64,000 nucleotides of DNA, taken from assembly GCA_964647625.1 (NCBI GenBank), contig CAZYHZ010000012.1, forward strand, positions 1 to 64,000. The letters run 5' to 3'. The DNA comes from an uncultured Acidobacteriota bacterium (GTDB lineage Bacteria; Acidobacteriota; Polarisedimenticolia; Polarisedimenticolales; DASRJG01). This document shows positions 44,327-62,535 of this stretch, one piece after another. A program made the position numbers and the translations under genes. A model generated the notes under the pieces. That model was given only the letters and a program-made list of their open reading frames with translations, did no database searches and was not told where the DNA came from. How positions within the stretch are numbered: the stretch's first letter is position 1; each line of letters begins with the position of its first letter.

Positions 44327-44861
44327 CCTCGGGGACTTCGACGACGGGGAACCCGTCGTCGTAGGGAGGCGCGTTGAGGATCGTCTGGGCGAGCTCGTGC
44401 GCGAACGGCTTCAGGATCTGATTCTCGAAATCGACGGCGGATTCCGTCTTCCAAAACATCGGCAGAGTCGATGTGAACTGACTGAAGTCCCGAGAATGCT
44501 TCGCCGTGGCGAGCGCCGGGAAGGATTCGCCGTCAAAGTACCGCACCGGGACCACGAGGTCGCAATGAGCAACACGCTCGCGCTCGACGAAGGTCATCCA
44601 CTCCGAAACGCACCAGCGGGATCGGAAGTACAGGGGCGACCAGACGCACAGGATGCAGCGTGACCGCTTGAGCGAATCCGCCATCTTCTTTCGCCAGTCG
44701 ACGCCTGTCTTGATGTCCTCGGTATCGAAGAATATCTGGACGTCCTGGCGCTGAAGCTCCAGCTTCAACCAATAGTGCAGCTTGGTCTTGACGGTCTCAT
44801 GCCACGCGTCGCTTTCCCGGTCGCGCTTGTAGCTGAAGAAAACGTCGTACAGATAGTCCAA
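44280..44861 (-). CDS. TIR-domain protein
   Basis: TTG start, 5 nt after GAGGTG. TIR motifs are YDVFFSYKRD and SRCILCVWSPLYFRSRWCVSEW. Confidence 0.88.
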   Translation of the reverse strand: MDYLYDVFFSYKRDRESDAWHETVKTKLHYWLKLELQRQDVQIFFDTEDIKTGVDWRKKMADSLKRSRCILCVWSPLYFRSRWCVSEWMTFVERERVAHCDLVVPVRYFDGESFPALATAKHSRDFSQFTSTLPMFWKTESAVDFENQILKPFAHELAQTILNAPPYDDGFPVVEVPEDGVTPEQPIRRPAGD

Positions 44862-44997
44862 CGCTCACCTCGCCGATCGAACCCGCTTGAATCGCGAGCG
44901 AAGAGATGTCGCCGTCGAATCTCAGCCTGGCTATGGGGCCAGCGAGCCGATTCTAACCCCGAACGTTCTGCCGAGGCACCACTTCTTGTCGCCGTCC

Positions 44998-45873: not shown

Positions 45874-45993
45874 ACATTCTCCGAACCGATTGCGCTCTGA
45901 TGCGGTATGATCCCGGTCAGATAGCCACCCGAGGAATCGGGCATCCCGCCCAATTCGAAACGGTGCACGTCTTACCACAGCGGGGTCACCATC

Positions 45994-48246
45994 GTGTACG
46001 TCCTCAGCAAAGATCCAAGATTCAACAGCCTCTCCGTGGCGGATCTTCTCGAAGCGCGTGATCTCTATCACACGCATCTGATCCACAAGAGGAACGTCGT
46101 CGGCACGGCGATCGGCCGGTACCTCATCCGGAAGGACGACAGTGCGCGGCGCAGCGACGGCTCCAAGCCCGAGCGCCGTTTCGACAACTCAGAGATCAAA
46201 GATTGGTCGTGGCCCTGCGTGATCGTACTCGTCGACCAATGGGAGGACTCGGCGGCGCCCTACGACCTGGTTCCCAAGACGCTCTATCTGCCTGACGGAC
46301 GAAGCGTGCCCGTCTGCCTCGTCCTCGTGGATCGACAACCCCACGATGGATCGAAGATCCCGCATTGGGTCTGGCCCGACGGTTTGTGGGGCGGGGGCAT
46401 GCCTCTCATCGTCGATGCTCAACGCATCGAGCGAGTCGCAAGCTCCGGCTGCCTCGTGAGCGACGGTCACACCCTCTACGTGTTGACCAACCGGCATGTG
46501 TGCGGAAACCCGGGCCAGGCCGTGTACACCCTGCAATCGGGGCGACGCAAGCTCGTTGGTCACGCCAGCGACAAGCAGCTGACCCGGAGGGCGTTCAAGA
46601 AGGTGTACACGGGTTACGTTGGCCGCCAGACGTGGCTGAACCTCGACGTCGGTCTGGTCGAGCTCGACGACGCCAGTGCGTGGACGTCGCAGGTGTACGG
46701 GCTTGGCCCTGTGGGCCAGCTCGCCGACCTCAGCGAGATCAACATCAGCCTGCGTCTCATCGACGAGCCCGTGGTGGCACACGGAGCGGCCTCCGGTCAG
46801 CTCGATGGAAAGATCATGGCGTTGTTCTATCGGTATCGGTCCGTGGGCGGGTTCGAGTACGTGGCCGATCTCTTGATCGCTCCTCCCGGTCGCGGAAAGC
46901 TCCAAACGCAACCGGGAGACTCGGGAACGATTTGGCATCTTCGAGACACCGATACCAAGAAGCTGCTGCCTCTCGCCATCGAGTGGGGCGGCCAGACGAT
47001 CGCCGATCCGCAAGCCGGGGGCCTCGTCAATTTCGCGCTCGCCACCAACCTGAGCACCGTGTGCCGTCTCCTCGATGTCGACGTCGTGGGCGACCACAAC
47101 GTCGGCGTTGCGCCCTACTGGGGGCAAACGGGTCACTACAGCATCGGATCGCTTGCGTGCGACCTCGTATCGTCGAAGAACCTTTCTCAGCTCATGACTT
47201 CGAATCGTGATCGGATCGCGTTCGCTACCGCCGAGCTGAATCCGGCGGACATCGGGGACGCGATCAAGACCGCGAAAACGGACGCCGGATTCATTCCGCT
47301 CGCGGACGTTCCCGATCTCGTCTGGAAGACGCTCGTCGGAAAAGTTGCCGGCGGCCGAGATCCGTACCGTGGCGCCAAGGGGCGCTCGAACGGCCCGGAG
47401 CATCCGACCCATTACGCCGACATCGACGAGGAGCGCGAGAGCGACGGCAAGACCCTGCGTCAGTTGTGTATGGAAGATCCGTCGAACGTCGACGTGGAGG
47501 TGTGGAAAAAGTTCTACACCGACCTTGGCCACACAGAGTACGGGAAACGCGGTCTCCTTCCATTCCGGGTGTGGCAGTTCTACGACGCGATGATCGCCGC
47601 GGTGAAGTCCAAGAAGCTCGATGAGTTCGTTTGCGCGGCCGGTCTCGTCTCGCACTACGTCGGCGACGCCTGTCAACCGCTCCACGGCTCGAAGCTGGCC
47701 GACGGATACGCCGATCAGCCAACCACGGTGGAGCACACCCGAAGGGCGACGGGCGAGACCTACGAGGAGGACTCGCACGTCGGTGCGGGAGTGCATTCCG
47801 CGTACGAGACGAACATGGTCGACCGGTTCGCATCGGAGCTGGTGGCCGGTCTGACAAAGGCGATCAAGGAGCCTTCGAAGGGGCCCAAGCCGGTCGCATC
47901 GGGGCATGAAGCGGCCGCGGCCATCGTCGCTCTGATGGATCGCACTGCGAAACGCCTTCCGCCGGAACAGCTCATACAGACGTATCTCAAGGCCGGCGGA
48001 AAGAAGGCCGTCGCCGTTTACGAAGCGCTCTGGGATGCGTATGGCGACGCGACCATCGAGACGATGCTCGATGGGTCGCAGGTCCTGGCGATGATTTGGG
48101 ACAGCGCGTGGTCGGCAGGGAAGGGCGATTCGATTCCCCAGGGGTCGTTGGCGGCGATCAAGAAGGAGACGTTGCAGGAGCTGTACGAGAACACGGAGTT
48201 CGTCCCGTCGCTCGACCTGGATCACATCGGCGCCGTCCTGAAATGA
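45994..48246 (+). CDS. Fusion protein: N-terminal trypsin-like serine protease domain plus C-terminal S1/P1-nuclease (Zn-dependent PLC/nuclease) domain
   Basis: GTG start. Trypsin catalytic elements are TNRHV (His), DVGLVEL (Asp) and GDSGTIWH (Ser). The C-terminal SHYVGDACQPLH matches the S1-P1 nuclease HxxGDxxQPxH signature. Confidence 0.85.
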   Translation: MYVLSKDPRFNSLSVADLLEARDLYHTHLIHKRNVVGTAIGRYLIRKDDSARRSDGSKPERRFDNSEIKDWSWPCVIVLVDQWEDSAAPYDLVPKTLYLPDGRSVPVCLVLVDRQPHDGSKIPHWVWPDGLWGGGMPLIVDAQRIERVASSGCLVSDGHTLYVLTNRHVCGNPGQAVYTLQSGRRKLVGHASDKQLTRRAFKKVYTGYVGRQTWLNLDVGLVELDDASAWTSQVYGLGPVGQLADLSEINISLRLIDEPVVAHGAASGQLDGKIMALFYRYRSVGGFEYVADLLIAPPGRGKLQTQPGDSGTIWHLRDTDTKKLLPLAIEWGGQTIADPQAGGLVNFALATNLSTVCRLLDVDVVGDHNVGVAPYWGQTGHYSIGSLACDLVSSKNLSQLMTSNRDRIAFATAELNPADIGDAIKTAKTDAGFIPLADVPDLVWKTLVGKVAGGRDPYRGAKGRSNGPEHPTHYADIDEERESDGKTLRQLCMEDPSNVDVEVWKKFYTDLGHTEYGKRGLLPFRVWQFYDAMIAAVKSKKLDEFVCAAGLVSHYVGDACQPLHGSKLADGYADQPTTVEHTRRATGETYEEDSHVGAGVHSAYETNMVDRFASELVAGLTKAIKEPSKGPKPVASGHEAAAAIVALMDRTAKRLPPEQLIQTYLKAGGKKAVAVYEALWDAYGDATIETMLDGSQVLAMIWDSAWSAGKGDSIPQGSLAAIKKETLQELYENTEFVPSLDLDHIGAVLK

Positions 48247-48271: not shown

Positions 48272-49159
48272 ATGACGCGTGGCGCATTCGGTTTCGAAGT
48301 GAACGACGAGGGGGACCTCCTCAACTCGGTACGGAACGTCGAGACGCTGCGACGATTGTTCCTGGATCACACGTTGATCACGGGCGACGATCTCGGCCCG
48401 GGCGATCGAGGGGACTTCGACGTCGGGGCGTGGCACGTGAGCTGCCACTTGGCGGGCGCCGGCGGCGTCCGGAAGAGTCGAACCGGTAAGCTGCTCTGGC
48501 TCGAGATCTCGCACGATCACGACCGCGATTCGTACTATGCGAGCGTTTCCTTGCGCGACGGTGGATCCGTTCGCACCGTCCGGATCGAGACGGCGGAAGG
48601 CCGGTCGATTCTGAGCGGCTCGCGGCTCCTCGGGTTCGTGGAGGGAACCTCGATCGGTCCCATCTCCGCGCACGGCGTGCAGGACCCTCCCGATCTCTTC
48701 AATCTCTGGCGGAGGCAAGATTTCGACCAGCCGATCGGCGAGACGATCGAAGGCGGGAAGGTCTGGGAGCACTGGTGCACGCTCCGCGATATCCGGCCGA
48801 CGCATCGCATCGGGACCGTCACCTTGAGCGCGTACGTCGCCCTCGCCGCGGCGCTCGGAGATCGGTTTGCCGCGACGGTGGCTCGTGGCCGCAGAGAGTA
48901 CGGGCACCCGGTCCAGCTCGCAGCGTTCGTCTGGTCGGGATTCGTCGGACGTCGTTCCGCGACGTGGGACACGAAACCGGCCCCGATCCCAGCCGCTGCG
49001 GAACCCTTGCTGCTGAGCGCCGATCCCGCTCAGGCGCTCGAGGCCGTCGAGCGCTTGGACTGGCCGTCGCTGCGCTACTACATGTACCGCCGAAAGATCA
49101 AAGGCTGGAGCGCGGCCGCCCATGTGAGCAAAGACATCAAAGCGTTCAAGCCGGCGTGA
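48272..49159 (+). CDS. Hypothetical protein (no recognisable domain)
   Basis: ATG 7 nt after AGGAGA and 25 nt after the upstream stop. Coding-like composition. Confidence 0.7.
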   Translation: MTRGAFGFEVNDEGDLLNSVRNVETLRRLFLDHTLITGDDLGPGDRGDFDVGAWHVSCHLAGAGGVRKSRTGKLLWLEISHDHDRDSYYASVSLRDGGSVRTVRIETAEGRSILSGSRLLGFVEGTSIGPISAHGVQDPPDLFNLWRRQDFDQPIGETIEGGKVWEHWCTLRDIRPTHRIGTVTLSAYVALAAALGDRFAATVARGRREYGHPVQLAAFVWSGFVGRRSATWDTKPAPIPAAAEPLLLSADPAQALEAVERLDWPSLRYYMYRRKIKGWSAAAHVSKDIKAFKPA

Positions 49160-49176
49160 CGAGCCAGAGGACAACG

Positions 49177-50358
49177 ATGCCGAAACATCTCATTGTTCGC
49201 GACGCCGCGGCCGTCAAGGCCGTCGAAGCGATCGGCGACCACACGGATAGCTGGAAGGCAGGCTGGGCCGCAATCAAGTCCGGTGGCGAGGTCATCGCAG
49301 AGATCCAGTCGATCGCGCGCGCCCGGTCCTGGACCTCGCTCACGGACGCGACGCCGTTTCTCAACGATCACGCACAGCGCCTCCTCGAGATGCGCCTCGA
49401 AGCGATCCACAAGTTCAAGATCGCTCCGCATCACCGTCGCGGTTTCAGGATGAATGTGCGTTCGGGAGCTCGGAAGCCGCGAAGCGTTCGGGCGCTGTGT
49501 CTGATCAGCGGGTACGAAGGCCAGGAAATCCCCGGCCTCGTCGATGCCGAAAGGGTCGTGGTCGACGCCGAGCACATGGAGCAGGCGCTGGGTCCCGCAG
49601 CGATCGCGGAGATCTTCAAGATCCGGAAGCGCATCGGGGAGAACGTCCTGATCTCCACCAACGTCTCCGAGTCACCGCAAATCGTGAGGTCGGCCCAGAC
49701 GGGCGCCGTCGATGTCCGCTCGACCGCGGCACTCTCCGCGTCCAAGGTGATTGCAGCCATCAGCGCGGGAGCCGACGTCGTCAAGGTCGGCTTCGCCAAT
49801 CCAAACCCGTTCAAGGGAGATCTCGGCTTCGAGGTGATCCTGAGTCAGATGAAGCTGATCCGTTCGATGATCGACGACGTCGTCAAGGAGAGACTGGTCG
49901 TCTTCCCGCTCAGCCGCACGGAAGGACAATTTCCGCTGATCAGCGTTTTTTTCCCCGAGATGGGGATCGACAGCGCGGGCGAGCGGCCGGTCGAAATCGC
50001 ACAGAAGGGAATCGAGCTGACCAAGAAAGCCGGCTGGCAGGGGATGCTGATCGATACGTTCGAGAAGTACACGGGCCGCCGGTACCCGGATTTCTACTCG
50101 CTGGCTGATACGGCGGCGCTTGCAAGCGCCGCGCACGAGTCGAAGCTCGAGTTATGGATCGCCGGCTCCATCCTCCAAGCGGAGGTTGCCGCTTATCTGA
50201 AATGCGGCGTCGACCTCATCTGCTTCGGCGGGGCTGCCCGTCATGCGGAGGGAATCCGCGTCACGTCGAAGGGGGCCAAGCGGGACGAGTCCATCAAGCG
50301 GCCTCTCGTCGAAAAGCTCGTCGCGACGTTCAACAAGCTCGATCCCAAGGGCCGCTGA
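49177..50358 (+). CDS. Hypothetical protein, possibly aldolase-type TIM-barrel-like (AISAGADVVKVGFANP block)
   Basis: ATG at 49177 after AGAGGA, 17 nt after the upstream stop. The stop overlaps the next ATG (TGATG). The fold assignment is speculative. Confidence 0.7.
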   Translation: MPKHLIVRDAAAVKAVEAIGDHTDSWKAGWAAIKSGGEVIAEIQSIARARSWTSLTDATPFLNDHAQRLLEMRLEAIHKFKIAPHHRRGFRMNVRSGARKPRSVRALCLISGYEGQEIPGLVDAERVVVDAEHMEQALGPAAIAEIFKIRKRIGENVLISTNVSESPQIVRSAQTGAVDVRSTAALSASKVIAAISAGADVVKVGFANPNPFKGDLGFEVILSQMKLIRSMIDDVVKERLVVFPLSRTEGQFPLISVFFPEMGIDSAGERPVEIAQKGIELTKKAGWQGMLIDTFEKYTGRRYPDFYSLADTAALASAAHESKLELWIAGSILQAEVAAYLKCGVDLICFGGAARHAEGIRVTSKGAKRDESIKRPLVEKLVATFNKLDPKGR

Positions 50359-51242
50359 TGCCCCAACGCGCCAAACGTCGCGGGCTCCTCTCGGACGCTC
50401 GCGTCTATCTTTCGGGGCCCATGGATTTCGTCGCGTCGCGCGCCGACGAAAAGACGCACGGGTGGCGCAATAGGGTCGGAGAGTTCCTGCGGGCTCTCGG
50501 AGTGACGGTATTCGACCCGTGGTTCAAGCCGGAGGTCCGCGGGCTTCATCAATACGGCATCGAATCCGAATCCACCGTCAATGCCCGCGAGAGCTGGACG
50601 TTCGCTCGTGGGAAGCTCGGCGGTCGCGCCAGGGCCAAATGCGTGGCGCAGTACTGGCAGACTCTTCACACGGATCTCAGGATGGTCGACACCAGCGATT
50701 TCATCGTTGCCTACGTTCCCACCAATATTTACAGCGTGGGCACGCCGCACGAGATTGCGCTCGCTCGCCAGCAGCGCAAACCCGTGCTCTTCGTGAGTCC
50801 CGCGGTGGAGATTCCTGCGCTCGACGAGCTGAAGCGTCATCTGGAAGACCGCAACGATGCACGAGGCCGAAAACTGCTCGAAGATCTCTGCAACGAGACG
50901 CCGATCAAGCCGAACCCAAGGGGCATTCCCAGCCTCTGGTACATGCCTCTCGTCGGCGGACAAAATTTTTTCGACGGTTTCGGTTTCCACCAATACGCCA
51001 GGCTATTCCCGGACTGGAAACCGATCTCTATCGACGGCCAAGAAGCGAAGAAGCGGCCTGTCCGACCGCTGCTGCCGTTTCTCGAGCGGGTCAATCGAGA
51101 GCTTCCTCTCAAGTGGGACGCGGCAGGCAGGCGTCCTCGACCCGACGACGACTGGCTTCTCTGGGACCTCCGACGCGCCGGTCGTCGAAAGGCAGGGGCA
51201 CAACTCAAGGGCGTTCGAAGCTCGACCGAGTCCCTGGGCTGA
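50358..51242 (+). CDS. Nucleoside 2-deoxyribosyltransferase-like (NDT/DNPH1-fold) domain protein
   Basis: ATG at 50358. VYLSGPMDF corresponds to the NDT YFGAGWF-type strand. The DFIVAYVPTNIYSVGTPHEIALA block carries a Glu at the NDT catalytic-Glu position. Confidence 0.75.
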   Translation: MPQRAKRRGLLSDARVYLSGPMDFVASRADEKTHGWRNRVGEFLRALGVTVFDPWFKPEVRGLHQYGIESESTVNARESWTFARGKLGGRARAKCVAQYWQTLHTDLRMVDTSDFIVAYVPTNIYSVGTPHEIALARQQRKPVLFVSPAVEIPALDELKRHLEDRNDARGRKLLEDLCNETPIKPNPRGIPSLWYMPLVGGQNFFDGFGFHQYARLFPDWKPISIDGQEAKKRPVRPLLPFLERVNRELPLKWDAAGRRPRPDDDWLLWDLRRAGRRKAGAQLKGVRSSTESLG

Positions 51243-51254: not shown

Positions 51255-54200
51255 CTACTTTTCGAGGACCGCCTCGCGTGCGGCCTTTTGAATGGCCAGG
51301 ATGGAAATCCCTTCGTTCGCCTGATAGGGGTTTCCCGAGCCGTCGATCGCCGTCATTCGGTCTTTCCCGCTGTGGTGCAGCGCGACTGCGCGCCACCCGT
51401 TCGGCTCGAAAACCGGACTGCCGGAGCTTCCGCCCTCGGTCGGCGATCGGTAGTGCAGGCGGGTCTCGTTGAACGCGACGAGACGATTGTCGTGGAGCGA
51501 GATCTCCAGATCCCTCCCGCCGGGACACCCGATCACGTACATCCGGGGAGCGGGTGTGGTCATCTTCATCGGCGCGGGGCACAGAGGAATCGGGACGGAG
51601 TTCGGTAGAACGCCCTCCAGCTCGAGGAAGCTGGCGTCGAGCTGGTCGACCGGAGAGCTCCAAACGACCCTTCGGACTCCCAGCATGCTTCCGCCGTTGG
51701 GACCGCCGAGGAAGTGGATCTGGGCCTCCCACGGAAGAAGAGGCGGTACGCCGACGCCACCGCCTTTGGCCGGCGGGTTGGCGATCACGTGCGCATTGGT
51801 CAGCAGCACGATCTCTCCATCCGGGCGCGACGGGAAGAAGTCGCGTGCGCGAACGAGCCACCCGGTTCCGACCCCGCGCCCCGCCTGCTCGATCCGTGCC
51901 ACGCTCTTGCTTCGCTCAATGGCCATCAAGAGCCAAGCGATGCTCTGAGAACCTTCCGCTCCGAACCGGCGTTGCAGGCCAGCAGTGTCGGGGTTCAGCG
52001 CATCTCGACTCAAGTTGATTCGTCCGGCCGGTCGCTTCGCGAGCGCGTCGCGAATCAGCGGAAGGATCTGTTTGCCCGGATCGGAACCGTCGCTGAGTCG
52101 CCAGATTTCTTCGAGCTGTCGCCGCGTTCCCTCGAGCGCAAAGGACGTGATGCCGGCGGCACGGAAATACTCCCGCGCCGCGTTGACGGCCTCGTCGTTT
52201 CGGCCGAGGGCGATGTAGGCCTCCATCTGGCTCGCGATGACCCACAAGTCATCGTCCGTGGCCATTGCGCCGTGGGTTTTTCGGTCCAGGCTCTCGAGGA
52301 TCTTCGCGGCGAGATCGGACGCCGACGCTCGGTCGCCTTTCCGGGACAGCAACGCCGCCGCGTTGACTCCCTGCCAGTGGTTGGACTCCGCGTTCCGGGA
52401 ATATGCGGCCGAGTAGTAGTCGATCGCCTTTTGCAGGTCTTCCGGCCGGCCCTCGCCGAACTGTTTTTCGACGTTCACGAAGGCCTGCTTGTGCAGCCGG
52501 CCCATCAAGCCCGTGGCCTCGTCTCGTTCCTCGGCCGGTGCGCCCTGATCGGCGATGAGCCTTTCCAGGATGAACTGCGCTTCGGGAAACCGACCGACGT
52601 CGAGGAAGGCCTGAGCGGTCAAGCGCTTGATCTTTGCGCTGTGGAGGCCGGACTTTTCGATCGCGCCGGAAAGTCGAACCAAAGCATCGAAACGCCGATA
52701 ATCCCGCAGCGCACCGACCGTATGTTTCGCGAGTTGCTCTTCAACCGGCTGCCCGAGGGCAGAGATCGCACGGATCAGCTCATCGACGATCGAATCGACT
52801 CCCACCCAGTCGTATTCGCTCAGCCGGTCTTTGAGTCGTTTCTCGAGCTTCTCGAGCGGTGTCCTCGACGTGGAGTCGTTGTCGAGGACGACGTCTACCC
52901 AGCCGTTGATGGGCGTGTAGATCTGCTCCGCGGATTCGAATCCGGCCTCGGAGGGCTTCTTCGGATCGAACTCTCTCAAACTTCCGAAGTCCAGATGCGT
53001 CAGCTTCTCGAGCGTGACGATCGGAAGCTGGTACGTACGAAACTCGCCGAACGCGAATTCCAGGCCGGAGATCATGTCCGCTTGGCTCAAAATATACGCG
53101 GTCGCGGAAAGGCGGCCGGCGTCTCCGATAATGCTGACCACCTTCCAGAACTGAAGCGGGATTTTCGCGCCCCGGTATGGCATGTCCTCGTCGCTGAACA
53201 CCGGTCCCGTGAAAACATTGACCTTGAGATTCTCTTGCCCCGCATTCCGGTAGATGTACTCTTCGAGATCGTTCCAAATTTTCTGATTCAGGTCTTTGTG
53301 TTGTGGGCACGAGTTCGTGTAGTGGAAAGTGTCGGAATTTGCGCCCTCGGCGTCGTCCCCCCAAACGGGATCCAGTCTCCTGACCATGTGCCCGCGGTCG
53401 AGGTCGTTGTCGACGTAAAGTGCGTTGTCGAACTGGGCCTCGTCGGCGAGGCGCGGATCCAAGCGCCAGGGGACCCCGTCCCTGCCGAGACTCTGGAGCG
53501 AAGTTCCGAGGATGTTCACTGCGGTGAACATGCTCAGCCGACGTGAGCGACTCATGACGACCGAAAAATGGGTGTACGGAAGGACGGTCGAGGTCGTGTT
53601 CTTCGTCGTCATGTATGAAAGAACGTCGCCGGCGAGCGGTCCTGTCGGCGTGGGCAGCGGGACGGCAATGCCGATGAAGTTCTCGTCGTACCCTGTGCGA
53701 TCGTCGTATTCCGAGGGATCAACGCGTCGTTCGAGGCCCTCGAGCGATTCCGCGAGCCTGATTGCGGTTCGGCCCGGCGGGAGGCTCAATCCGAGTTCCT
53801 CGGCCAGCGCCGCGATTCGCGAGACTGGGATCACCCCGCCGCCGTCCGCCACGAGACCGATGGCTTCGCCGGAAGATAGGGAAACGATCGGCGCGCCCAG
53901 GGCGCCATTCGGGAACGGTCCATCCGCGTCGAGCCGGGACAAAGGCTGTCCGGGGGAGAATCGTCCGAATCCAATCCACGAGCTCGCGCGCGAGCCCAGC
54001 ACGGCGGCATCGTCGTCGGTAGCCGTCCGAGCGACGGGGATGTGAGCAGGCAACGAACCGTCCACCTCCACGATGGCGAGATCGGGATCGTTGCGGCTTC
54101 GAAGCACCGCGCGCACGCGCACCGACTCTCCCGACCTGAGGCGAACCACTGACCCGACAGTGGGGTCCGTGCGGAAGGCGATCACACGTCCGGGTGCGAT

Positions 54201-54380
54201 GACCCACCCGGCGGCGAGGACACTCGACGCCGGCTCGAATTCGCAGACGGCCGCAGCGGCTCGGCGCAGGTCGTTGACCGCGAACGCCGCGCAGCGATAC
54301 CAACGCTTCGATGCGTCCTTTGCCAGGACGTCGAGCACGCTGCCGGGATCGGCGGTCGAAGTCAACGTCACGAATGGCAT
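51255..54380 (-). CDS. Giant multidomain protein (1041 aa): protease-like N-domain, DNA/RNA non-specific endonuclease (NUC, DRGH motif), TPR-like helical region, C-terminal trypsin-like serine protease
   Basis: ATG at 54380, 7 nt after GGGAG. The NUC motif reads DRGHMVRRLDP...N...FHYTN. The C-terminal S1 peptidase shows LLTNAHVI (His) and EGGSSGSPVF (Ser). The ORF-track start at 54629 is an extension. Confidence 0.85.
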   Translation of the reverse strand: MPFVTLTSTADPGSVLDVLAKDASKRWYRCAAFAVNDLRRAAAAVCEFEPASSVLAAGWVIAPGRVIAFRTDPTVGSVVRLRSGESVRVRAVLRSRNDPDLAIVEVDGSLPAHIPVARTATDDDAAVLGSRASSWIGFGRFSPGQPLSRLDADGPFPNGALGAPIVSLSSGEAIGLVADGGGVIPVSRIAALAEELGLSLPPGRTAIRLAESLEGLERRVDPSEYDDRTGYDENFIGIAVPLPTPTGPLAGDVLSYMTTKNTTSTVLPYTHFSVVMSRSRRLSMFTAVNILGTSLQSLGRDGVPWRLDPRLADEAQFDNALYVDNDLDRGHMVRRLDPVWGDDAEGANSDTFHYTNSCPQHKDLNQKIWNDLEEYIYRNAGQENLKVNVFTGPVFSDEDMPYRGAKIPLQFWKVVSIIGDAGRLSATAYILSQADMISGLEFAFGEFRTYQLPIVTLEKLTHLDFGSLREFDPKKPSEAGFESAEQIYTPINGWVDVVLDNDSTSRTPLEKLEKRLKDRLSEYDWVGVDSIVDELIRAISALGQPVEEQLAKHTVGALRDYRRFDALVRLSGAIEKSGLHSAKIKRLTAQAFLDVGRFPEAQFILERLIADQGAPAEERDEATGLMGRLHKQAFVNVEKQFGEGRPEDLQKAIDYYSAAYSRNAESNHWQGVNAAALLSRKGDRASASDLAAKILESLDRKTHGAMATDDDLWVIASQMEAYIALGRNDEAVNAAREYFRAAGITSFALEGTRRQLEEIWRLSDGSDPGKQILPLIRDALAKRPAGRINLSRDALNPDTAGLQRRFGAEGSQSIAWLLMAIERSKSVARIEQAGRGVGTGWLVRARDFFPSRPDGEIVLLTNAHVIANPPAKGGGVGVPPLLPWEAQIHFLGGPNGGSMLGVRRVVWSSPVDQLDASFLELEGVLPNSVPIPLCPAPMKMTTPAPRMYVIGCPGGRDLEISLHDNRLVAFNETRLHYRSPTEGGSSGSPVFEPNGWRAVALHHSGKDRMTAIDGSGNPYQANEGISILAIQKAAREAVLEK

Positions 54381-54399
54381 TGCTCGCTCCCTCGTCGCG

Positions 54400-54960
54400 T
54401 CATCCTCGTCTTCCGCCGCGACCGCCGCCTGTTCCGCGACCTCCGCCTCCGCCTCGCCCACCAGGCGACCTTCCGGCGCCGCCGCCCGATCGGCCGCTCG
54501 AGCGGGCACTCGGTGATCTGGGCGAGGGGCGGCTCGCGCGCGAGGCGGGGGATCCCCGGCGGGTTTGCGCTGCGACGCGGGCTTGTCCTCTCCCGGCCGT
54601 TGAAGTCGGCCCTCGCAAGACGGGTGCACTCATGCGCGCAGCGTTGCGTAGGATCGACTTGACGTACTTTTGGGTCTCTTTGAACGGTGGGACTGAGTTT
54701 CCCGCCTTCTTGACGTTGCCGGGGCCCGCGTTATAGGCGGCCAGTGCGAGGGCGTAGTTTCCCTTGAAAGTCTTGAGCTGTCGCGCGAGGTACTTCATCC
54801 CACCTTTGATGTTCTGCTCGACGTTCGTAGGATCGACTTTCAGCTCTTTCGCTGTCTTGGGCATCAGCTGCATGACGCCGATCGCTCCGACACGGCTCTT
54901 GGCGCTTTGCAGTCCGCGTCTTTCTTGCCAGGCCTGCTCTTTGGCGATACCGGTATGCAC
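54400..54960 (-). CDS. Lytic transglycosylase (SLT domain) with Arg/Gly-rich C-terminal tail; possibly N-terminally truncated/pseudogene
   Basis: The SLT core reads E...VGAIGVMQLMPKTA...AYNAGPGNV. GTG start at 54960. An in-frame TAA lies 11 codons upstream, preceded by ATG with a GGAGG RBS. Confidence 0.7.
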   Translation of the reverse strand: MHTGIAKEQAWQERRGLQSAKSRVGAIGVMQLMPKTAKELKVDPTNVEQNIKGGMKYLARQLKTFKGNYALALAAYNAGPGNVKKAGNSVPPFKETQKYVKSILRNAARMSAPVLRGPTSTAGRGQARVAAQTRRGSPASRASRPSPRSPSARSSGRSGGGAGRSPGGRGGGGGRGTGGGRGGRRG

Positions 54961-55117: not shown

Positions 55118-56548
55118 TTACTTGGCCTGCAGACGACGAATGCCGGCCATGACATCGGGCGCGATTCGACTCTGCAGCTTGTGGGTGGTCAATTCATCGA
55201 GTGCGGATCGATAGGAATCCAATGCACCCGTGGTTTGTCCCGCGAGTTCTTGAAGCTGCGCCAACATGAAATGGAACGTCGGTCGCTTTTCTTCCGGAAC
55301 GACGTGTATCGGGAAGAGCCACGAGAAGGTCCGCAAGTGGTCGGCCGGTGGGACGATCTTCAGAAACACCGCCCGATCGCGCTGAGCAACGAGGCGGTCG
55401 TAGTAGACGTTCCAAATGTCCCACAGCGAAGTATCCGTCTCGTTCGAGATCGGGAACGGAAAGTCCTCGGCGTTGGCGCTCATCTCTGAGAGCACGCGCA
55501 CCAAGCCGGCTTGCAGCGGCAAATCGGCGGTCAGCAGATGCCCGCGAAGCTCCATACGTCGGACGTAGGTCCGCTCCCGCTCGGAGGCCACCGCTCTAGA
55601 AAAATGAACCTCGGCATCTGCGATCGAGCCATTCGACGTTAGGATGAAGTAGCCCCACATCGCATGCGCGAACGGATTGTCGGCGTCTCGCTCGATCGCT
55701 CGCTCGTAGTACACCGTCGGATCGATCCGCGTGACCACGTCCTTCGACCGGAGATACGCCGCCCAACCTAGATGCGCGAGCGCGTCCGCCGCGCGCTTGG
55801 CGTCTTTCGCTCCCGCCGCTCGAACGAGCGTCGGTTCCACCTTGGCGGCGACGTCCGTGAACGTTTCGGTTCGGACGATCGCGTGGACGTTGTCGAGCCA
55901 ATCCATCGCCACGCCCTCACAGCCGAGTCGCACCACATCGCTTTCCCCGTCGAGGGCGAGCGCGGTGGAGCAACGATCCCACGCCGCGGTGTAGTTCGAC
56001 GACTTCCGGTCGAGATCCGCATGGGCGACGAGCCGCGCCGCCTCCTGGCGGGACTCCAGTCGGAGGTACCCGCGCCACAGCCCGAGTCCCCCGGCGATCG
56101 CGAGGACCGTCAGGATTAGGGCGACGCGAACCGATCTGCCGAGCGACCAGCGCGAGTGCCCGAATCGGCGGACCGCGTCCCCAACCTCGGCCGCGACGTT
56201 TCCCTGCGGTTCCAGAATCACGACCGCGCGCAGGTAGGGAGGGATGGCGGTGCGATCGACGTGCCGCACGACTACGGGTAGGACTCGTCCCGCGGGATTG
56301 GGCCACTTTTCCTCGGCAAATCGAATCTCGCTGAGGGTATAGCGACCCGCCGCCACGGCTTCCGGGCTCAGCAGGAACACGAACAGGTCGGCGTCTCGGA
56401 TCGCATCGCAGATTCGCTCGTCGTAGGCGCCGCCTTCGGTGAGATCCGAGGCATCGAGGAAGACTTCATCGCCGTCCTCGCGGAGGGCCAGCGCGATTTC
56501 CTCGGCGATCGTGCGCTGCTCCGAAGCGTGGGACAGGAAGATCTTCAA
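55118..56548 (-). CDS. TIR-domain membrane protein (N-terminal TIR, one TM, C-terminal domain of unknown function)
   Basis: TTG start, 6 nt after GAGG. The TIR reads KIFLSHASEQRTIAEEIALALREDGDEVFLDASDL...DADLFVFLLSPEAVAAGRYTLSEIRFA. The TM is VALILTVLAIAGGLGLW. Confidence 0.85.
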   Translation of the reverse strand: MKIFLSHASEQRTIAEEIALALREDGDEVFLDASDLTEGGAYDERICDAIRDADLFVFLLSPEAVAAGRYTLSEIRFAEEKWPNPAGRVLPVVVRHVDRTAIPPYLRAVVILEPQGNVAAEVGDAVRRFGHSRWSLGRSVRVALILTVLAIAGGLGLWRGYLRLESRQEAARLVAHADLDRKSSNYTAAWDRCSTALALDGESDVVRLGCEGVAMDWLDNVHAIVRTETFTDVAAKVEPTLVRAAGAKDAKRAADALAHLGWAAYLRSKDVVTRIDPTVYYERAIERDADNPFAHAMWGYFILTSNGSIADAEVHFSRAVASERERTYVRRMELRGHLLTADLPLQAGLVRVLSEMSANAEDFPFPISNETDTSLWDIWNVYYDRLVAQRDRAVFLKIVPPADHLRTFSWLFPIHVVPEEKRPTFHFMLAQLQELAGQTTGALDSYRSALDELTTHKLQSRIAPDVMAGIRRLQAK

Positions 56549-56680
56549 GGCGAGCCTCGTGCTGCCAATCCAGGGCAGCTATAGCTGGAGGCAGTCTAGT
56601 CGAAAGTTCGTTGAATGTTCACCCCTGTTTTCGTGTAATCTTGCTGGCAGATACGCGTTCCGACCTCATCCGGACGCAGA

Positions 56681-57265
56681 GTGATCGTCGCCCTGGAGCG
56701 ACGAGGAGGGTTCCCAACGTTGAGCGTCGTCGCGCTGGCCGGTCGCCGGATCGACGCGATGGGAGCGTCCCCGCGCTTCGCCGAGTCGCGGATCGCTATC
56801 GTTCGAATCCGGATTCGCTCCATGCTGGTGTCGCAACGGGCGCGAGCGCTCGTGTGCTCGGCAGCCTGCGGCGCAGACCTGCTCGCACTCGAAGCCGCCG
56901 GCGAGATCGGCCTCAGGCGCCGTGTCGTGTTGCCGTTCGACGCCGAGCGGTTTCGGGAGACGTCCGTCATCGACCGCGGCGGGGATTGGGGCGGACGTTT
57001 CAAGCGCATCATCGATGCGGTCGAGGCCACGGATGATCTGATCGTGCTCGATGCGGAGGCGGGTGACGAGGAAGCCTACGCCAGCGCGAGCTTGGCCATC
57101 TTGAACGAGGCCGAATCGCTTGCCGCGGCAAGCGACCCCCCCGACAAACTGGTCGCGGCGATCGTGTGGGAGGGGGCCGCTCGCGGTGAAGACGATTTGA
57201 CCGGCTATTTCGCGACGCAGGCGCGCGGTCGCGGATTCGAGTTGATTGAAATCTCAACCAGGTGA
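56681..57265 (+). CDS. SLOG-like (DprA/LOG-type Rossmann) domain protein
   Basis: GTG start. ALVCSAACGADLLALEAAGEIGLRRRVVLPF resembles the DprA/LOG vVSGxAxGIDxxAHxxAL strand-helix motif. The stop overlaps the next start (GTGA). The family call is tentative. Confidence 0.65.
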   Translation: MIVALERRGGFPTLSVVALAGRRIDAMGASPRFAESRIAIVRIRIRSMLVSQRARALVCSAACGADLLALEAAGEIGLRRRVVLPFDAERFRETSVIDRGGDWGGRFKRIIDAVEATDDLIVLDAEAGDEEAYASASLAILNEAESLAAASDPPDKLVAAIVWEGAARGEDDLTGYFATQARGRGFELIEISTR

Positions 57266-58548
57266 CACCGATGCCCACGGATTACGAGAAGACTTGTTTT
57301 GTCATCATGCCGTTCGGGAAGAAACCGGTAGACGGCACACTCGTCGACTTCGACGAGATCTACACGCGCATTCTGGAGCCCGCCGTTCGCGGAGCCACGC
57401 TTCCGGAGGGCGGATCGTTGGAGCCCTATCGAACCGACAAGGACTTTGCCTCGGGAGACATTGACGTCGAGATGTTCGGCGCGCTCGAGCACGCACGCAT
57501 CGCGATGGCGGACATCACGGGGCTGAATCCGAACGTGTTCTACGAGCTGGGCACCCGGCATCGCGCACGCGCGAGCGGAACCGTCATCCTTCGCCAAGTC
57601 GGTGCCGCGCTCCCGTTCGACATCAACAAGATCAAGGCCTTCTCCTACGACCCGGACCCCTTGAAGACTCAGGACGCCCGGACTCTGATTCGAAACGTTC
57701 TCGACGCGTCACTCGCCGAGAACCGTCTCGACAGCCCCGTCCGTGTGGCGCTTGCCTCGACGAGCGTGTCGCACGAACCCGCAGACGACCTGGTTCGCGA
57801 GGCCGTGAACGCGCTCCGTGTCGGAGACAAGGCCAATGCAGTGGTAAAGCTCCGCGCTGCGGTGGCCGCCGATCCGTCCAACCCGGGAACGCGCGTTCGC
57901 CTCGGGATCATCCTTCGAGATTCCGGACGCTGGCAAGAAGCGCTCGAGCAGTTCGCGGCCGCGACCGCGGCCTCGCCCGGCTACGCCGAAGCTTGGCGAG
58001 AGCGAGGGATCGCCGAGAACAAGCTCGACCCGAGCCGGGGCGAAGCTTCTCTCCGGCGCGCCATCGTCCTCCAAGGCGACGATTTCGACGCCTTATCGTC
58101 GCTCGGAGGAATCCTCAAGCGTGCCGGACGGCTCGACGACGCCCTCGAGATGTACCGGCGCGCCGCCGATACGTCGGACAACCACCCGTATCCGCTCCTC
58201 AACGCGATCACGCTCTCCGTGCGCCTCACCCGAAAGCTAGACCTCGACGTCAGGACGAATCTCCTGCTGGCGAGAAATGAGCGGTCGCTCCGGGCTCAAG
58301 TTGCACAGAGTCCGCCTTACAACGCGCCCTGGAGCTTCTTTGACCTCGCGCAGACCCGGCTCTTCTGCAAGGACCGATCGGGATTCTTGTCCGGCATCAC
58401 GGACGGCGCGTCGAGCTGCGACGCCGCATGGCAGCCCAAGACGTTCCGCGAGACGCTCGCGCTAATGGATGGCGCGGACATCGCACTCGACGGCCTCGCG
58501 GAAGGGCTCGCGCAGCTGAATGAGGTGATCGCGGCGCTGGGGAGTTGA
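57262..58548 (+). CDS. NDT-like (nucleoside 2-deoxyribosyltransferase-fold) domain fused to TPR repeats
   Basis: The N-terminal CFVIMPFGKK...DITGLNPNVFYELGTRH mirrors the NDT strand and catalytic-Glu blocks. The C-terminal half has TPR repeats (AWRERGIAENKLD..., LSSLGGILKRAGRLDDALEMYRRA). Confidence 0.8.
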   Translation: MTPMPTDYEKTCFVIMPFGKKPVDGTLVDFDEIYTRILEPAVRGATLPEGGSLEPYRTDKDFASGDIDVEMFGALEHARIAMADITGLNPNVFYELGTRHRARASGTVILRQVGAALPFDINKIKAFSYDPDPLKTQDARTLIRNVLDASLAENRLDSPVRVALASTSVSHEPADDLVREAVNALRVGDKANAVVKLRAAVAADPSNPGTRVRLGIILRDSGRWQEALEQFAAATAASPGYAEAWRERGIAENKLDPSRGEASLRRAIVLQGDDFDALSSLGGILKRAGRLDDALEMYRRAADTSDNHPYPLLNAITLSVRLTRKLDLDVRTNLLLARNERSLRAQVAQSPPYNAPWSFFDLAQTRLFCKDRSGFLSGITDGASSCDAAWQPKTFRETLALMDGADIALDGLAEGLAQLNEVIAALGS

Positions 58549-59000: not shown

Positions 59001-59240
59001 GGCGCGCGGCCTTCGCTTGCTTCGCAACGCTAGAGCGCCTGCTTGATGGCGACGCGGATCAGCCGCCGACGGTGAGCGTGGGCTTCGGCTGAATGACGTT
59101 CCTATATGGCGGGGCGCCTCGACTGACAGCATTCACTCCGCGAAGCAATGAACGCTCGATCATCGGCGCAAATCACGAGCTTGTGTGGTAGTCTTTTCTC
59201 AGCTTCAGCTATCTCGGGGCCTTCCCGGAGGTACTCATCC

Positions 59241-60578
59241 GTGGCCGAGCTTGCACTACGAGTGCGCGTATTCATCGCCTCCCCTAGCGACGTCAAACCG
59301 GAGCGCGACATCGCTGAGGAAGAGATCCGCGGTCTTGCGGATGAGGCCGCGCGGAGCGGCCTGCTCATCTCTCCCGACCGCTGGGAGCGCCTACGTCCGA
59401 CATTCGCGCCAGGACAGCCGACCCTGAACGAGGAATTGGAAAAAGCGGACCTGACCATTGCAATTTTCTGGTCGAGACTTGGCAAGGCGGTAGAGGGCGC
59501 TGAAACCGGCTCAATGCAGGAAGTCAGAATCGCGGGCGAGCGAGTCACACGCGGTCTTTCGGACGACCTGATCGTCTACTTTCGCACCTCGCCTGCTCCC
59601 GCAAACTCGTCTGCCGAACAAGTCGAAGCAGTCGCAGCATTTCGTCGCCGGCTCCACGAAGGGCACTTCCTTGCGACGACGGAGTACGAAAGCGTTGACG
59701 AGTTCAGGTCCTTGATTCAGCGCCACTTGCGCGAATGGCTCGAGCGCTGGAAGCCGGTGCCGAGGATTTGCGAATATGCGCTCAGTCGCTCCAGTCCGTC
59801 CGTAGACGCTCGCCAGCCTCTCGGAGAGAACCGCGTTCAGAGAGTGCTCAATCTATTCGACGCCTTCGAGAGGAAGTCGGTTGCAACCCATTTAGGCCGC
59901 CTGGCCGTAACGCGATACCAGCAAGATGGGCCCATGGCGATGCGGCGCCCGTTCTCTCAGCGCGAGACGGGTCTACCTCACGACAATTGGAATGAAGTGT
60001 CGGCGATGGCCCGAGAGAATGGTGAAGCGGTCACCGACGTTGCGGATATTCTTCAGGTTTACCATCTCTCTCCGGCGCCGTTCCTTAAGCACAACCGTGA
60101 CCAGTACCGTTTCTCTTGCGCGGAATGGTTCTACTTCTTTTGCGCCTGGGGGTTAATAGCGGAGATAACCGAGGGCAACGTCGAAGCGGTCGAAAGACGA
60201 CCGTACATCAATCCCGTACACCAGTACATCAAGGGTCTGACTCGGCGCCGAGCGGCGAACGTAAGTACGAATCTGATCGCGTGGCTTCTCAACGAGACTG
60301 GAATCACCGATGGTAAGCCGATTGCGCGCAACTTCGCCGCCTACGTTCTCGGCATGATCGGAGCGCGCGAGGCCGAGGATGCGCTCGCGCGCGCCCTCAA
60401 GGAGGACGACGGTGATGACGTACGGTTGTATTGCCTGACGTCGCTCGGAAAGCTACGGTCCCGCCGCTACCTGTCGTTGGTCGTCGACTTCTACGACGCC
60501 GCCCCTTCGGACGAGTTTCGTCTCGACGTTGCGAGGGCGGTCAGCCGGATTACCGGCGTTGCGATGTTTGAATTGTAG
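59241..60578 (+). CDS. DUF4062 (TIR-like) domain protein with C-terminal HEAT repeats
   Basis: GTG at 59241 downstream of GGAGG. RVFIASPSDVKPERDIAEEEI...LTIAIFWSRLG matches the DUF4062 signature. The C-terminal HEAT/PBS-lyase repeats read ARNFAAYVLGMIGAREAEDALARAL and DVRLYCLTSLGKL. Confidence 0.8.
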   Translation: MAELALRVRVFIASPSDVKPERDIAEEEIRGLADEAARSGLLISPDRWERLRPTFAPGQPTLNEELEKADLTIAIFWSRLGKAVEGAETGSMQEVRIAGERVTRGLSDDLIVYFRTSPAPANSSAEQVEAVAAFRRRLHEGHFLATTEYESVDEFRSLIQRHLREWLERWKPVPRICEYALSRSSPSVDARQPLGENRVQRVLNLFDAFERKSVATHLGRLAVTRYQQDGPMAMRRPFSQRETGLPHDNWNEVSAMARENGEAVTDVADILQVYHLSPAPFLKHNRDQYRFSCAEWFYFFCAWGLIAEITEGNVEAVERRPYINPVHQYIKGLTRRRAANVSTNLIAWLLNETGITDGKPIARNFAAYVLGMIGAREAEDALARALKEDDGDDVRLYCLTSLGKLRSRRYLSLVVDFYDAAPSDEFRLDVARAVSRITGVAMFEL

Positions 60579-60600
60579 AGCTTCACAGGAGGTTGATGAG

Positions 60601-62535
60601 ATGCGAGTTCAGATCACGGTACTGAAGCGGGCATTCATCGCAGTCGTGCATTGCCTTCTGGTCGGTGCCCCGTTCTCCGCCAAGGCAACGAGCCCACAAT
60701 CGGCGGAGCCGGACATGCTAGTGCTCTCACTAGGCACCCTCGACAACGCCACCGAGGACCATAGGGCCCATATCCGTGAGCGCCTGACCAACGACCCAGA
60801 TCTGGCCGTGGATCTCGATAAGCGACTCCTCGAAATCCAGATGGAGATCGCGCGGAAGACCGCTCCATTCGGGCCAGTGCTTCTGGTCGCTCCCGATGAA
60901 GCGACGAAGAACGCGATCTACGCTCGATGCGCAGAGTTTCAGATTTGCGATCTTATTCGACAGGACAACATGCGTTTGAAAGTGGTGGAGCACACCGGCG
61001 TCTGGGTGCGGGACTACGGCCCCCATGTTCAACTGGTAAATGGCGCGGCACGAGTCACGCATTGGAGATACTTCGATAATCGATCCGAAGAAGGAAAGAA
61101 TCAAGACATCAAGCAGCTCAACATGTACCTCCTCTCGCTGATCGAGACCCGCCTGAGACTCATCAACCCCGACGGATTGCTCGACGAGTCCAGCGATTTC
61201 TCGCTGGGCAATGCGGTCGCTGAGCTGGATTCCCAAATCAACCTCGTGCGCGAACTCACACAGACCCTCTCCGAAATGTCGCCCCAACGAAATGAAGACG
61301 ACAGTTCCGCATTCGACATCGCCGATGCGGCGCTTGCAAGTCCGGGATTCAGTTACGCAACGTCCAAGGTCGCGCTCGATGGTGGAAACTTATTGAAGCT
61401 GGAGGGAGATAGATGCCTGACGACACGTGCACTCCTCTCCAGAAACAAGGACCAACAGGTCGATGTCTACAAGGAGCTTCGGGACGTTGAAGGATGCAAG
61501 GAAGTCGTGTTCCTAGACCCCTTGCCCGGCCCAGTGATCGAACACATCGACATGTTTGCTCTTCCGCTCGGCCCAAAGAAGCTATTGTTGGCTTCCTATG
61601 ACTTAACGGATCCGCTTGTGCACGCACATTGGAGGGAGCTTAGCGACCCGGAGCGTTTCATGATGTTCGGCGCAGCTCTAGCGATGGACCGAAATGCCGA
61701 TCGGCTGAAGCAACTCGGATATGAAGTCATCCGTGTGCCCTCGCCGGCTCCCAGAATTCCTCGCCACGGCGATCCGTACTATCCAACTGTTCTCAATGCG
61801 GTCGTGCGAACGAACCGGGACAACCACCACCAGCTCCTCGTTCCCTTCTACAAAGGGTATCAGGAAGACATACAGGCGGCCGCACGATCGGTAATCAAAT
61901 CGGCGTACGGTCGAGACGCGGACGTCGTTACGATCGAGTCGAGCGAAGCCGCCAAGGCACAAGGCGCGATCCACTGCCTGACGCTGACGATTCCTTTGGA
62001 GATCTCGATATTCGGAGATCGAGCCGAAGCAGAGCGACGAGGGCAGTACTTGGCCCAAAAAGAAAAACTGGACCGCGACATCGCGACCGAGATTGCTGCG
62101 AGGATCCCTCCAACGGGCGTTGACGGTGTCTGGGCGATCCTGGACGAGGAGGACCAGCAGTTCAGCGCGGACATTACCGACCCGTCGCCGATGAGGATCT
62201 ACTTTGGTCGAGGCCGCCTCGAGCTCGGCAGTTTGAACACGCGGCTAATGTCCGGGACGTACGAAGTCGAGAACGAGAACCTGGACTCATGGTCATTGCG
62301 TATCAAGTTTGAAGATGATGACGAAAAGGCAGCAGCGCTCAAGTGGATGGGCAAAGACGAGGCCACGCTCCAATTGGGCGACGAGGATACCTGGGTGTTG
62401 AAGCGCTTGAATTACGGCGCGGCGTCACCGTTTGAAGACACGATCGTTGGGGAGGCCGTGGCACCGGAAACACTCAAGGGATCACGCATTCAAGAATCGG
62501 CCCCACACCACCGAAGGACGGGAACGGTGAAATAA
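60601..62535 (+). CDS. Secreted agmatine deiminase / porphyromonas-type peptidylarginine deiminase family protein with ~230-aa C-terminal extension
   Basis: ATG at 60601, 8 nt after AGGAGG, with a signal peptide. Guanidino-modifying-enzyme motifs are GVWVRDYGP, DGGNL, EHIDMF and GAIHCLT (catalytic Cys). Confidence 0.85.
   Translation: MRVQITVLKRAFIAVVHCLLVGAPFSAKATSPQSAEPDMLVLSLGTLDNATEDHRAHIRERLTNDPDLAVDLDKRLLEIQMEIARKTAPFGPVLLVAPDEATKNAIYARCAEFQICDLIRQDNMRLKVVEHTGVWVRDYGPHVQLVNGAARVTHWRYFDNRSEEGKNQDIKQLNMYLLSLIETRLRLINPDGLLDESSDFSLGNAVAELDSQINLVRELTQTLSEMSPQRNEDDSSAFDIADAALASPGFSYATSKVALDGGNLLKLEGDRCLTTRALLSRNKDQQVDVYKELRDVEGCKEVVFLDPLPGPVIEHIDMFALPLGPKKLLLASYDLTDPLVHAHWRELSDPERFMMFGAALAMDRNADRLKQLGYEVIRVPSPAPRIPRHGDPYYPTVLNAVVRTNRDNHHQLLVPFYKGYQEDIQAAARSVIKSAYGRDADVVTIESSEAAKAQGAIHCLTLTIPLEISIFGDRAEAERRGQYLAQKEKLDRDIATEIAARIPPTGVDGVWAILDEEDQQFSADITDPSPMRIYFGRGRLELGSLNTRLMSGTYEVENENLDSWSLRIKFEDDDEKAAALKWMGKDEATLQLGDEDTWVLKRLNYGAASPFEDTIVGEAVAPETLKGSRIQESAPHHRRTGTVK

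Follow-up and report, generated by a model that had tools for sequence, protein, structure and literature searches.

Signalling by TIR domains of the Thoeris type is common to bacteria, plants and animals, and the catalogue of its effectors is still growing. In type VIII Thoeris, a TIR protein is associated with ThsI, described as 'CMP hydrolase and TPR', the signal is canonical cyclic ADP-ribose (cADPR), and the pair protects E. coli from phages (Yirmiya et al., Sorek lab, bioRxiv 10.64898/2025.12.03.692087). Type VII couples a TIR protein to a SLATT protein (bioRxiv 10.64898/2025.12.03.692087), and ThsA of type I provides a precedent for a SLOG domain sensing a cADPR isomer. Here we consider a locus related to these systems, at positions 55118–58548 of a 64,000-nucleotide stretch of DNA from an uncultured Acidobacteriota bacterium (GenBank assembly GCA_964647625.1, contig CAZYHZ010000012.1, positions 1 to 64,000; hereafter the window). 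The gene of a small SLOG protein lies there directly upstream of the gene of a ThsI-like effector, and the pair faces a divergent TIR gene. That this is Thoeris-like defence with a ThsI-like effector is probable. We also favour, with moderate confidence, a more precise account: an anti-phage module of the Thoeris family driven by an NAD+-derived signal, where the ThsI-like effector would be split and the SLOG protein would be its ligand-sensing subunit. The locus is laid out as follows.

55118–56548, minus strand: TIR protein of 476 aa with a transmembrane (TM) segment and TPR-like repeats (Pfam TIR_2); TIR domain at about 56240–56542, TM segment at about 56075–56134, TPR-like C-terminal part of about 310 aa
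56549–56719, no strand: divergent intergenic region between the TIR and SLOG genes, 171 bp, from the sequence and its open reading frames (ORFs)
56720–57265, plus strand: small SLOG-fold protein of 181 aa, YpsA/YAcAr-like clade, with several invariant motifs
57271–58548, plus strand: ThsI-like effector of 425 aa; DNPH1/MilB/TIR-like N-glycosidase domain at about 57271–57765, then TPR/TPR-S repeats, with TPR-S at about 57931–58218

All three ORFs delimited in an initial annotation of this DNA are present, with revised starts for the two genes of the plus strand. For the SLOG gene, TTG at 56720 is favoured over GTG at 56681: there is a GGAGG upstream, the family has its consensus start at this codon, and a protein of 181 aa is what public gene calls predict. 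The ThsI-like gene starts most plausibly with ATG at 57271, yielding 425 aa, in agreement with the family N-terminus 'M..DY.K.CFVIMPFG' and with public gene calls. Since the SLOG gene ends at 57265, the two genes are therefore separated by a gap of 5 nt, and the GTGA overlap of stop and start formerly read here is no longer the likely boundary; their coupling is still tight. In the intergenic region between the TIR and SLOG genes, no promoter or terminator consensus rose above the shuffled expectation.

Beyond what had been proposed from the ORFs, the TPR part of the second protein is TPR-S, and the protein as a whole is a homologue of ThsI-like proteins. With Pfam, TPR-S (PF20308) scores 27.6 bits for a cut-off of 27.6 (E 4.6e-06), a match that qualifies at the very border; the domain is carried by many orthologues of the effector, and a hidden Markov model (HMM) built from nine seeds, which besides clear TPR-S regions of other proteins include the TPR repeats of the window protein itself, places it at residues 223–318 with E 4.9e-14. 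An E. coli IncP plasmid, reached via the TIR sequence published for the validated type VIII system of Yersinia, has a ThsI-like gene ('TRAFs-binding domain', TPR-S 1.5e-17) directly upstream of a ThsB_TIR gene, the product of which is 56% identical to the Yersinia protein. The window effector aligns with this ThsI-like protein at 30% identity (BLASTP, E 6e-25) and, over its full length, with a homologue from an Agrobacterium plasmid (E 3e-32). The HMM of the N-domain of the window's family matches the E. coli and Agrobacterium proteins (2e-27 and 7e-35), and all three proteins match PADLOC PDLC00733 over the same stretch. This homology, together with the shared architecture, makes 57271–58548 a ThsI-like effector.

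The N-domain had been read as resembling nucleoside 2-deoxyribosyltransferases (NDT), with the position of the catalytic Glu conserved and TPR repeats behind it, a description that holds at the level of the fold. The model of the domain has a predicted local distance difference test score (pLDDT) of 80.6. Like DNPH1, MilB and the nucleoside 2-deoxyribosyltransferases, it displays a flavodoxin-like fold with a Glu in '..D(I/V)T....(V/G)(F/G)YELG' at the position of the nucleophile. The Glu of 'NVFYELG' is invariant in the family, distant ThsI-like proteins included, and weak profile matches put this FYELG Glu on the YELG Glu of DNPH1. No match was obtained with the Pfam NDT models (PF05014/PF15891), and the matches to DNPH1, MilB and NDT sequences are non-significant (E 0.3–0.7), so that 'NDT-like' is a statement about the fold and not about family membership. 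Unlike these enzymes, furthermore, the domain of the window is fused to TPR-S.

As for the first gene of the pair, the earlier SLOG call likewise stands as a fold assignment. The protein has no match in Pfam (E<=0.1), NCBIfam or PADLOC, and a profile search of the sequences in the PDB returned nothing meaningful. The AlphaFold2 model, made with 30 homologues in the alignment, is confident (pLDDT 92), and 9 of 30 relatives show weak matches to Pfam YAcAr (PF10686, a YpsA-related SLOG), the best at 0.0019; the window protein itself lies below every Pfam threshold, including the gathering cut-off of the YAcAr/YpsA family. It belongs to the SLOG superfamily by its Rossmann-like fold and its Gly-rich/GxD ligand loop. 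Invariant in the family are ALAGRRxD, CGxD (G51-x-D53), RRR, SVxDR..W and WxGxxRGxxDxT, and GxD is a motif described for the YpsA clade. YpsA of B. subtilis (PDB 2nx2) has about 15% identity to the window protein, with no profile match to its sequence; it modulates cell division and has gpsB as its partner, unlike what is seen in the present setting. An exhaustive search (E<=0.001) found 3085 representatives of clusters at 50% identity, and a word-indexed search more than 1900 matches. The family extends over Acidobacteriota, Cyanobacteriota, Chloroflexota, Verrucomicrobiota, Pseudomonadota, Gemmatimonadota and Heliobacteria.

The linkage of this family to effectors was assessed in a sample of 80 SLOG genomic loci, with neighbours assigned by family HMMs. 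Within 3 kb of the SLOG gene, TPR-S is found in 34 of the 80 loci, an NDT-like N-domain in 23, patatin in 21, TIR in 21 and SLATT in 15, and at least one of the five in 47. The neighbourhood is narrow: 23 NDT-like hits fall within 1.5 kb of SLOG and 0 in the 795 kb beyond, while the corresponding figures are 24 and 1 for patatin, 33 and 3 for TPR-S. The pairing of SLOG with effectors is thus far beyond chance. Starting from the other partner, metagenomic loci coding for NDT-TPR proteins have a SLOG gene in 24 of 61 informative cases and a patatin gene in 22, with no other recurrent partner. The initial annotation had made conserved pairing of SLOG with NDT-TPR in other genomes the test by which its proposal could be refuted; the adjacency does recur, and fusions exist as well. 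At least four lineages have SLOG and the NDT-like effector in one polypeptide. SLOG, NDT and TPR-S follow each other in a single chain in the gene order of the window (P0351, P0365, P0475), a permuted chain runs NDT-TPR-S-SLOG (P0456, L076), and other proteins join patatin to SLOG (P0399, L067) or SLOG to TPR-S and patatin (L068). These fusions argue that the two plus-strand genes of the window encode parts of one functional unit, and we consider it very likely that the SLOG protein and the ThsI-like effector act as one.

The same linkage bears on a more mundane account, ordinary nucleotide salvage by LOG-like and NDT-like enzymes. Both folds are known in salvage enzymes, and some SLOG subfamilies sit in conserved synteny of a non-defence kind. 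To retain salvage, however, one would have to explain why an N-glycosidase domain is fused to TPR-S, why the protein is homologous to ThsI-like proteins adjoining ThsB-type TIR genes, and why the partners are TIR, SLATT, trypsin effectors and a patatin that is CapV-like (the phospholipase of CBASS, cyclic oligonucleotide-based anti-phage signalling, in PADLOC, 1.2e-41). Some occurrences are also plasmid-borne: on a Lichenicola plasmid, TIR, SLOG and TIR-TPR-S genes lie beside restriction-modification and addiction genes. Salvage in place of immunity is, in consequence, very improbable. Further contexts are SLOG with TIR-TPR-S and SLATT in cyanobacteria, SLOG with a TPR-S-trypsin protein, and SLOG divergently adjacent to LSDAT_prok (a TRPM-type SLOG) with SLATT at about 6100–8000 on the minus strand of five loci, assigned with Pfam in L009 and L020 and, from clustering and SLATT matches, in L016, L024 and L051.

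Subfamilies that stand alone make up a separate part of the family. They account for 25 of the 80 loci, form four sequence clusters, come mostly from Blastocatellia and are without effector neighbours; their loci (L005, L008, L015, L026, L030, L031, L054, L056, L073 and others) share a conserved non-defence row with genes for proteins of 273 aa, 107 aa and 159 aa. The SLOG protein of the window clusters with the effector-linked ones, and its nearest relatives are all effector-linked, apart from these standalone subfamilies. A 181-aa neighbour in L174, tested as a possible further member, is not a SLOG protein. The existence of standalone forms would suit a host-encoded brake, a sponge or hydrolase removing a cADPR-type signal and acting as a threshold or a reset, in the manner of the ring nucleases of type III CRISPR. 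Such a brake would also make sense of the tight coupling or fusion to effectors with a sensor of their own in TPR-S. A fold search of a viral library further indicated that YpsA/YAcAr-like SLOG proteins resembling that of the window are common in phages, and the literature proposes that phage proteins of this type degrade cADPR-type signals. Yet a Thoeris off-switch of this kind is so far undemonstrated, and a sensor better explains the patatin-SLOG fusions, in which patatin is without any other sensor domain; we regard the brake as quite unlikely.

In the closest relatives (57–74% identity; L164–L166), patatin, SLOG and NDT-TPR genes stand in a row, with an overlap of 4 nt between patatin and SLOG, and L172 and L176 also have this trio of genes. 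The presence of patatin upstream of SLOG in the relatives had not been part of the initial annotation. The 171-bp gap between the TIR and SLOG genes is too short for this patatin gene, and a search for a copy or a remnant across the window found none, which makes the window a patatin-less variant. Another arrangement is seen in L178 (1–12000), where a TIR_2 gene, two ThsB_TIR-type genes and a TIR-WD40 gene precede a patatin and NDT-TPR pair, itself followed by an unassigned 203-aa gene with no PADLOC match.

We now turn to the divergent gene. It had been described as a TIR protein with one TM segment and a C-domain of some 300 aa, and this is borne out: the TIR domain matches TIR_2 (PF13676) at 4.3e-19 over residues 3–103, a single hydrophobic 19-mer at residues 139–158 (Kyte-Doolittle 2.04) is kept in 53 of 60 full-length homologues, and the C-domain of about 310 aa gives weak TPR matches in Pfam. 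A test with the TPR-S profile rejected the idea that this C-domain might be TPR-S. The family is conserved, with full-length members of about 475 aa. Residue E74, in 'YTL[ST]E', is conserved in at least 95% of the 60 homologues and, judging from the known position of the SxWCxxEL-type motif, is probably the catalytic Glu of the TIR domain. The protein may be seen as a candidate signal-producing (ThsB-like) TIR or as a candidate autonomous TIR NADase. The TIR gene heads a row of genes on its own strand, the other members of which are the following.

54400–54960, up to 55041, minus strand: SLT-like (lytic transglycosylase) ORF, between the TIR and EndoNS genes (precomputed Pfam SLT on an identical NCBI contig)
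51255–54629, minus strand: protein with EndoNS, TPR-S and Trypsin_2 domains (Pfam 5.8e-46, 1.3e-12, 8.1e-20), downstream of the TIR gene

The public call of the EndoNS gene probably starts at 54380. A homologue (2.1e-96) of its TPR-S-trypsin half is encoded next after SLOG in L021, and the EndoNS protein is probably a second TPR-S effector of the same locus. Because the row led by the TIR gene ends in a TPR-S protein whose trypsin half has such a homologue beside SLOG, we think that 51.2–58.5 kb forms a single bidirectional locus of Thoeris-like type, comprising one TIR, one SLOG and a pair of TPR-S effectors. As an aside on the SLT-like ORF, which has a Gly/Arg-rich tail, the window has an in-frame stop at what is codon 16 of the 213-aa call made on the public contig with an identical SLOG protein.

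A cognate role of the window's TIR is moderately supported, and that this very protein produces the signal for the SLOG/ThsI-like pair is possible, somewhat short of an even chance. The competing account leaves it outside the module, as an autonomous single-gene TIR defence (a TPR-like sensor with an NADase) that happens to neighbour a separate cassette of SLOG and ThsI-like genes. Three of the four contexts examined for its homologues are indeed standalone, among housekeeping genes and in non-defence surroundings; the TIR partner of the module varies between relatives; the window is densely packed with defence genes, forming an island that holds a second system, of TIR and SLATT; and the Sorek-lab screen took standalone TIRs as likely NAD+-depleting effectors. 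However, the closest homologue (52% identity) has a patatin-SLOG-NDT-TPR operon as its immediate neighbour, in another, convergent arrangement and with other TIR genes around, the TIR of the window leads the operon-like row just described, and TIR genes are enriched near SLOG, with 31 hits in the 439 kb that lie up to 3 kb from it and 6 in the 587 kb farther out. Independence of this TIR from the module is thus a minority view, unlikely though well worth keeping in mind.

On the observed folds, homology to ThsI-like proteins, linkage and fusions, a mechanism may be sketched; what the ligand is, which way the signal travels and what the substrates are is inferred. Upon infection, a TIR protein, either the divergent one or one encoded elsewhere, would turn NAD+ into a cADPR-type signal. 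The small SLOG protein would be the ligand-binding subunit of a split effector, analogous to the SLOG domain of type I ThsA, and together with the TPR-S domain it would switch on the N-glycosidase domain. The latter would hydrolyse nucleotides (nucleoside or deoxynucleoside monophosphates, NMP/dNMP, or an NAD-related substrate), so that the phage is starved or the cell arrested. In the three-gene form, presumed to be ancestral, the same SLOG protein would also gate the CapV-like patatin phospholipase, whose gene was lost from the window or never present in it. The EndoNS-TPR-S-trypsin protein of the TIR operon would probably respond to this signal too, as a further effector.

Several points weigh against this scheme. 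Validated type VIII works with TIR and ThsI alone, which implies that SLOG is dispensable for effectors of the ThsI type in general, and as ThsI already has a presumed sensor in TPR-S, a second one seems redundant. The comparison with type VIII, as far as sequences suggest, runs through plasmid ThsI-like proteins and not through validated ThsI sequences. The family of the window's TIR is often standalone, unlike the ThsB_TIR of validated type VIII, and the gene is divergent rather than co-directional. Among the candidate Thoeris effectors of the Sorek laboratory, tests of 'SLOG Patatin' and of 'SLOG and 4TM' showed no defence, those of the former in E. coli (bioRxiv 10.64898/2025.12.03.692087, Table S2). 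Finally, when effector-linked SLOG loci are limited to those flanked on either side by 5 kb or more, no canonical TIR is detectable within 8 kb in 16 of 32, and in L176/L177 the patatin-SLOG-NDT-TPR operon is alone among housekeeping genes, according to precomputed Pfam assignments. For these TIR-less loci, it is possible that a TIR from elsewhere in the genome supplies the signal, possible that it is made by the TIR-like N-glycosidase domain or by the SLOG protein, and possible, too, that no nucleotide signal is needed.

This brings forward the alternative that the SLOG protein is an enzyme, making or converting the signal (for instance as an N-glycosidase or a cyclase acting on NAD+ or ADP-ribose derivatives) in place of TIR or after it, with TPR-S effectors sensing the product. 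The TIR missing from half of the well-flanked loci and the operon isolated in housekeeping surroundings would then be accounted for, and two-gene modules of SLOG with an X-TPR-S protein (L021, L042, L047, L052) would parallel the layout of TIR and ThsI. There are 33 invariant residues in the family, many of them Arg, and GxD and WxGxxRGxxDxT stand at the position of the LOG active site; LOG-clade SLOG enzymes cleave N-glycosidic bonds, and YpsA-clade proteins are predicted in the literature to generate or sense signals. Yet the catalytic motif of LOG, PGGxGTxxE, is not present as such, the characterised SLOG domains of Thoeris are sensors, a signal generator fused to its own effector would be unusual, and the other half of the loci, like the window, do have TIR genes. 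An enzymatic SLOG is, on these grounds, rather unlikely. A slightly less likely variant would make the patatin-SLOG-ThsI-like operons self-contained, TIR-independent immune systems, with the SLOG protein as an analogue of ThsB and its product read by TPR-S and patatin. A SLOG protein that is a sensor rather than an enzyme, as in the scheme that we prefer, is put forward tentatively, at close to an even chance.

The surroundings of the locus are rich in related genes. The initial annotation had counted three TIR-family genes (two TIR and one DUF4062) and two NDT-like genes in this island; the second TIR is solid, whereas DUF4062 reaches only E 0.084 in Pfam and the second NDT-like gene 24.8 bits for a cut-off of 28.8. 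That TIR, at 44280–44861 (TIR_2 1.4e-18), adjoins a SLATT_3/SLATT_1/DUF4231 protein at 44998–46086, with a ParA/MinD-like ATPase bearing HEAT repeats downstream (42449–44326), and the whole of 42449–46086, on the minus strand, looks like type VII Thoeris (TIR and SLATT ThsH) with an extra gene. At 48775–51242 on the plus strand, a 4HFCP_synth-like protein is followed by the 362-aa protein with the sub-threshold NDT matches. Past the locus, at 59148–62535 on the plus strand, comes the HEAT-repeat protein with the faint DUF4062 match (PADLOC PDC-S60, 2.9e-15), then a PAD_porph-like (agmatine/peptidyl-arginine deiminase) protein. The GC content is 0.65–0.70 over 1–24 kb and 0.57–0.66 over 30–64 kb, a shift that fits a horizontally acquired defence island. 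In two other loci (L168, 4664–5972; L169, 6457–7338), plasmid ThsI-like genes lie beside TIR and DUF4231/SLATT genes, placing types VII and VIII side by side, as is also seen in rare operons (bioRxiv 10.64898/2025.12.03.692087).

The components discussed here, TIR, SLOG sensors, ThsI, TPR-S and CapV-like patatin, are all known. In the literature searched, the coverage of which stops short of Burroughs and Aravind 2020, we found neither a small YpsA/YAcAr-like SLOG family whose members regularly accompany TPR-S effectors or are fused to them, nor the patatin-SLOG-ThsI-like triad, nor its TIR-less form. What comes into view is a very large cross-phylum family of small SLOG proteins with some 3000 representatives at 50% identity, lacking a Pfam model of its own and closely tied to TPR-S effectors (ThsI-like N-glycosidases, trypsin, TIR), patatin and SLATT. 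Its role, whether second sensor, signal converter, brake or substitute for TIR, would clarify the control of type VIII-like effectors and would also account for the many operons that have no TIR.

Set against described systems, the locus has several kinds of relatives. TPR-S was reportedly introduced in 2020 by Burroughs and Aravind (J Bacteriol 202:e00365-20), who are also said to have predicted systems of TIR with TPR-S; so far as the outline of these systems in that work goes, the window shares with them TPR-S associated with varied effectors (N-glycosidase, EndoNS/trypsin) near TIR genes. Among the NCBIfam models of type III Thoeris (the effector model being assumed to be in the release), none matches the SLOG protein, and the TIR protein reaches 27.8 bits with ThcB4, for a cut-off of 220; a published TIR sequence followed toward a type III example led to a Zymomonas type I system and was dropped. 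With the 'SLOG Patatin' candidates, compared by description, relatives of the window's SLOG share adjacency or fusion to patatin (L067, P0399), while the window has none; the group of L009, L016, L020, L024 and L051, where SLOG lies beside LSDAT_prok-SLATT, resembles in architecture, again by description, the 'SLOG and 4TM' candidates. Type VIII is nearer. Its effector, like that of the window, has a DNPH1/MilB-like N-glycosidase domain followed by repeats of the TPR-S/MAP3K_TRAF_bd type, and a TIR gene adjoins it. The identity between effectors is only about 28–30%, with plasmid ThsI-like proteins as stand-in, and the two-gene operon of type VIII, a small co-oriented ThsB-type TIR with its effector, has no counterpart in the window. 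In its place, a SLOG gene, fused in some lineages, lies directly upstream of the effector and so stands between it and the TIR, which is no small ThsB_TIR but a divergent, 476-aa TIR-TM-TPR-like protein (TIR_2); the relatives of the window depart further from type VIII, with a patatin gene added and many loci without a nearby TIR. By contrast with type I ThsA, in which SIR2 and SLOG form one protein, the SLOG of the window is a separate 181-aa protein, of the YpsA/YAcAr-like clade and not of the ThsA type, and the enzyme of its effector is NDT/DNPH1-like instead of SIR2.

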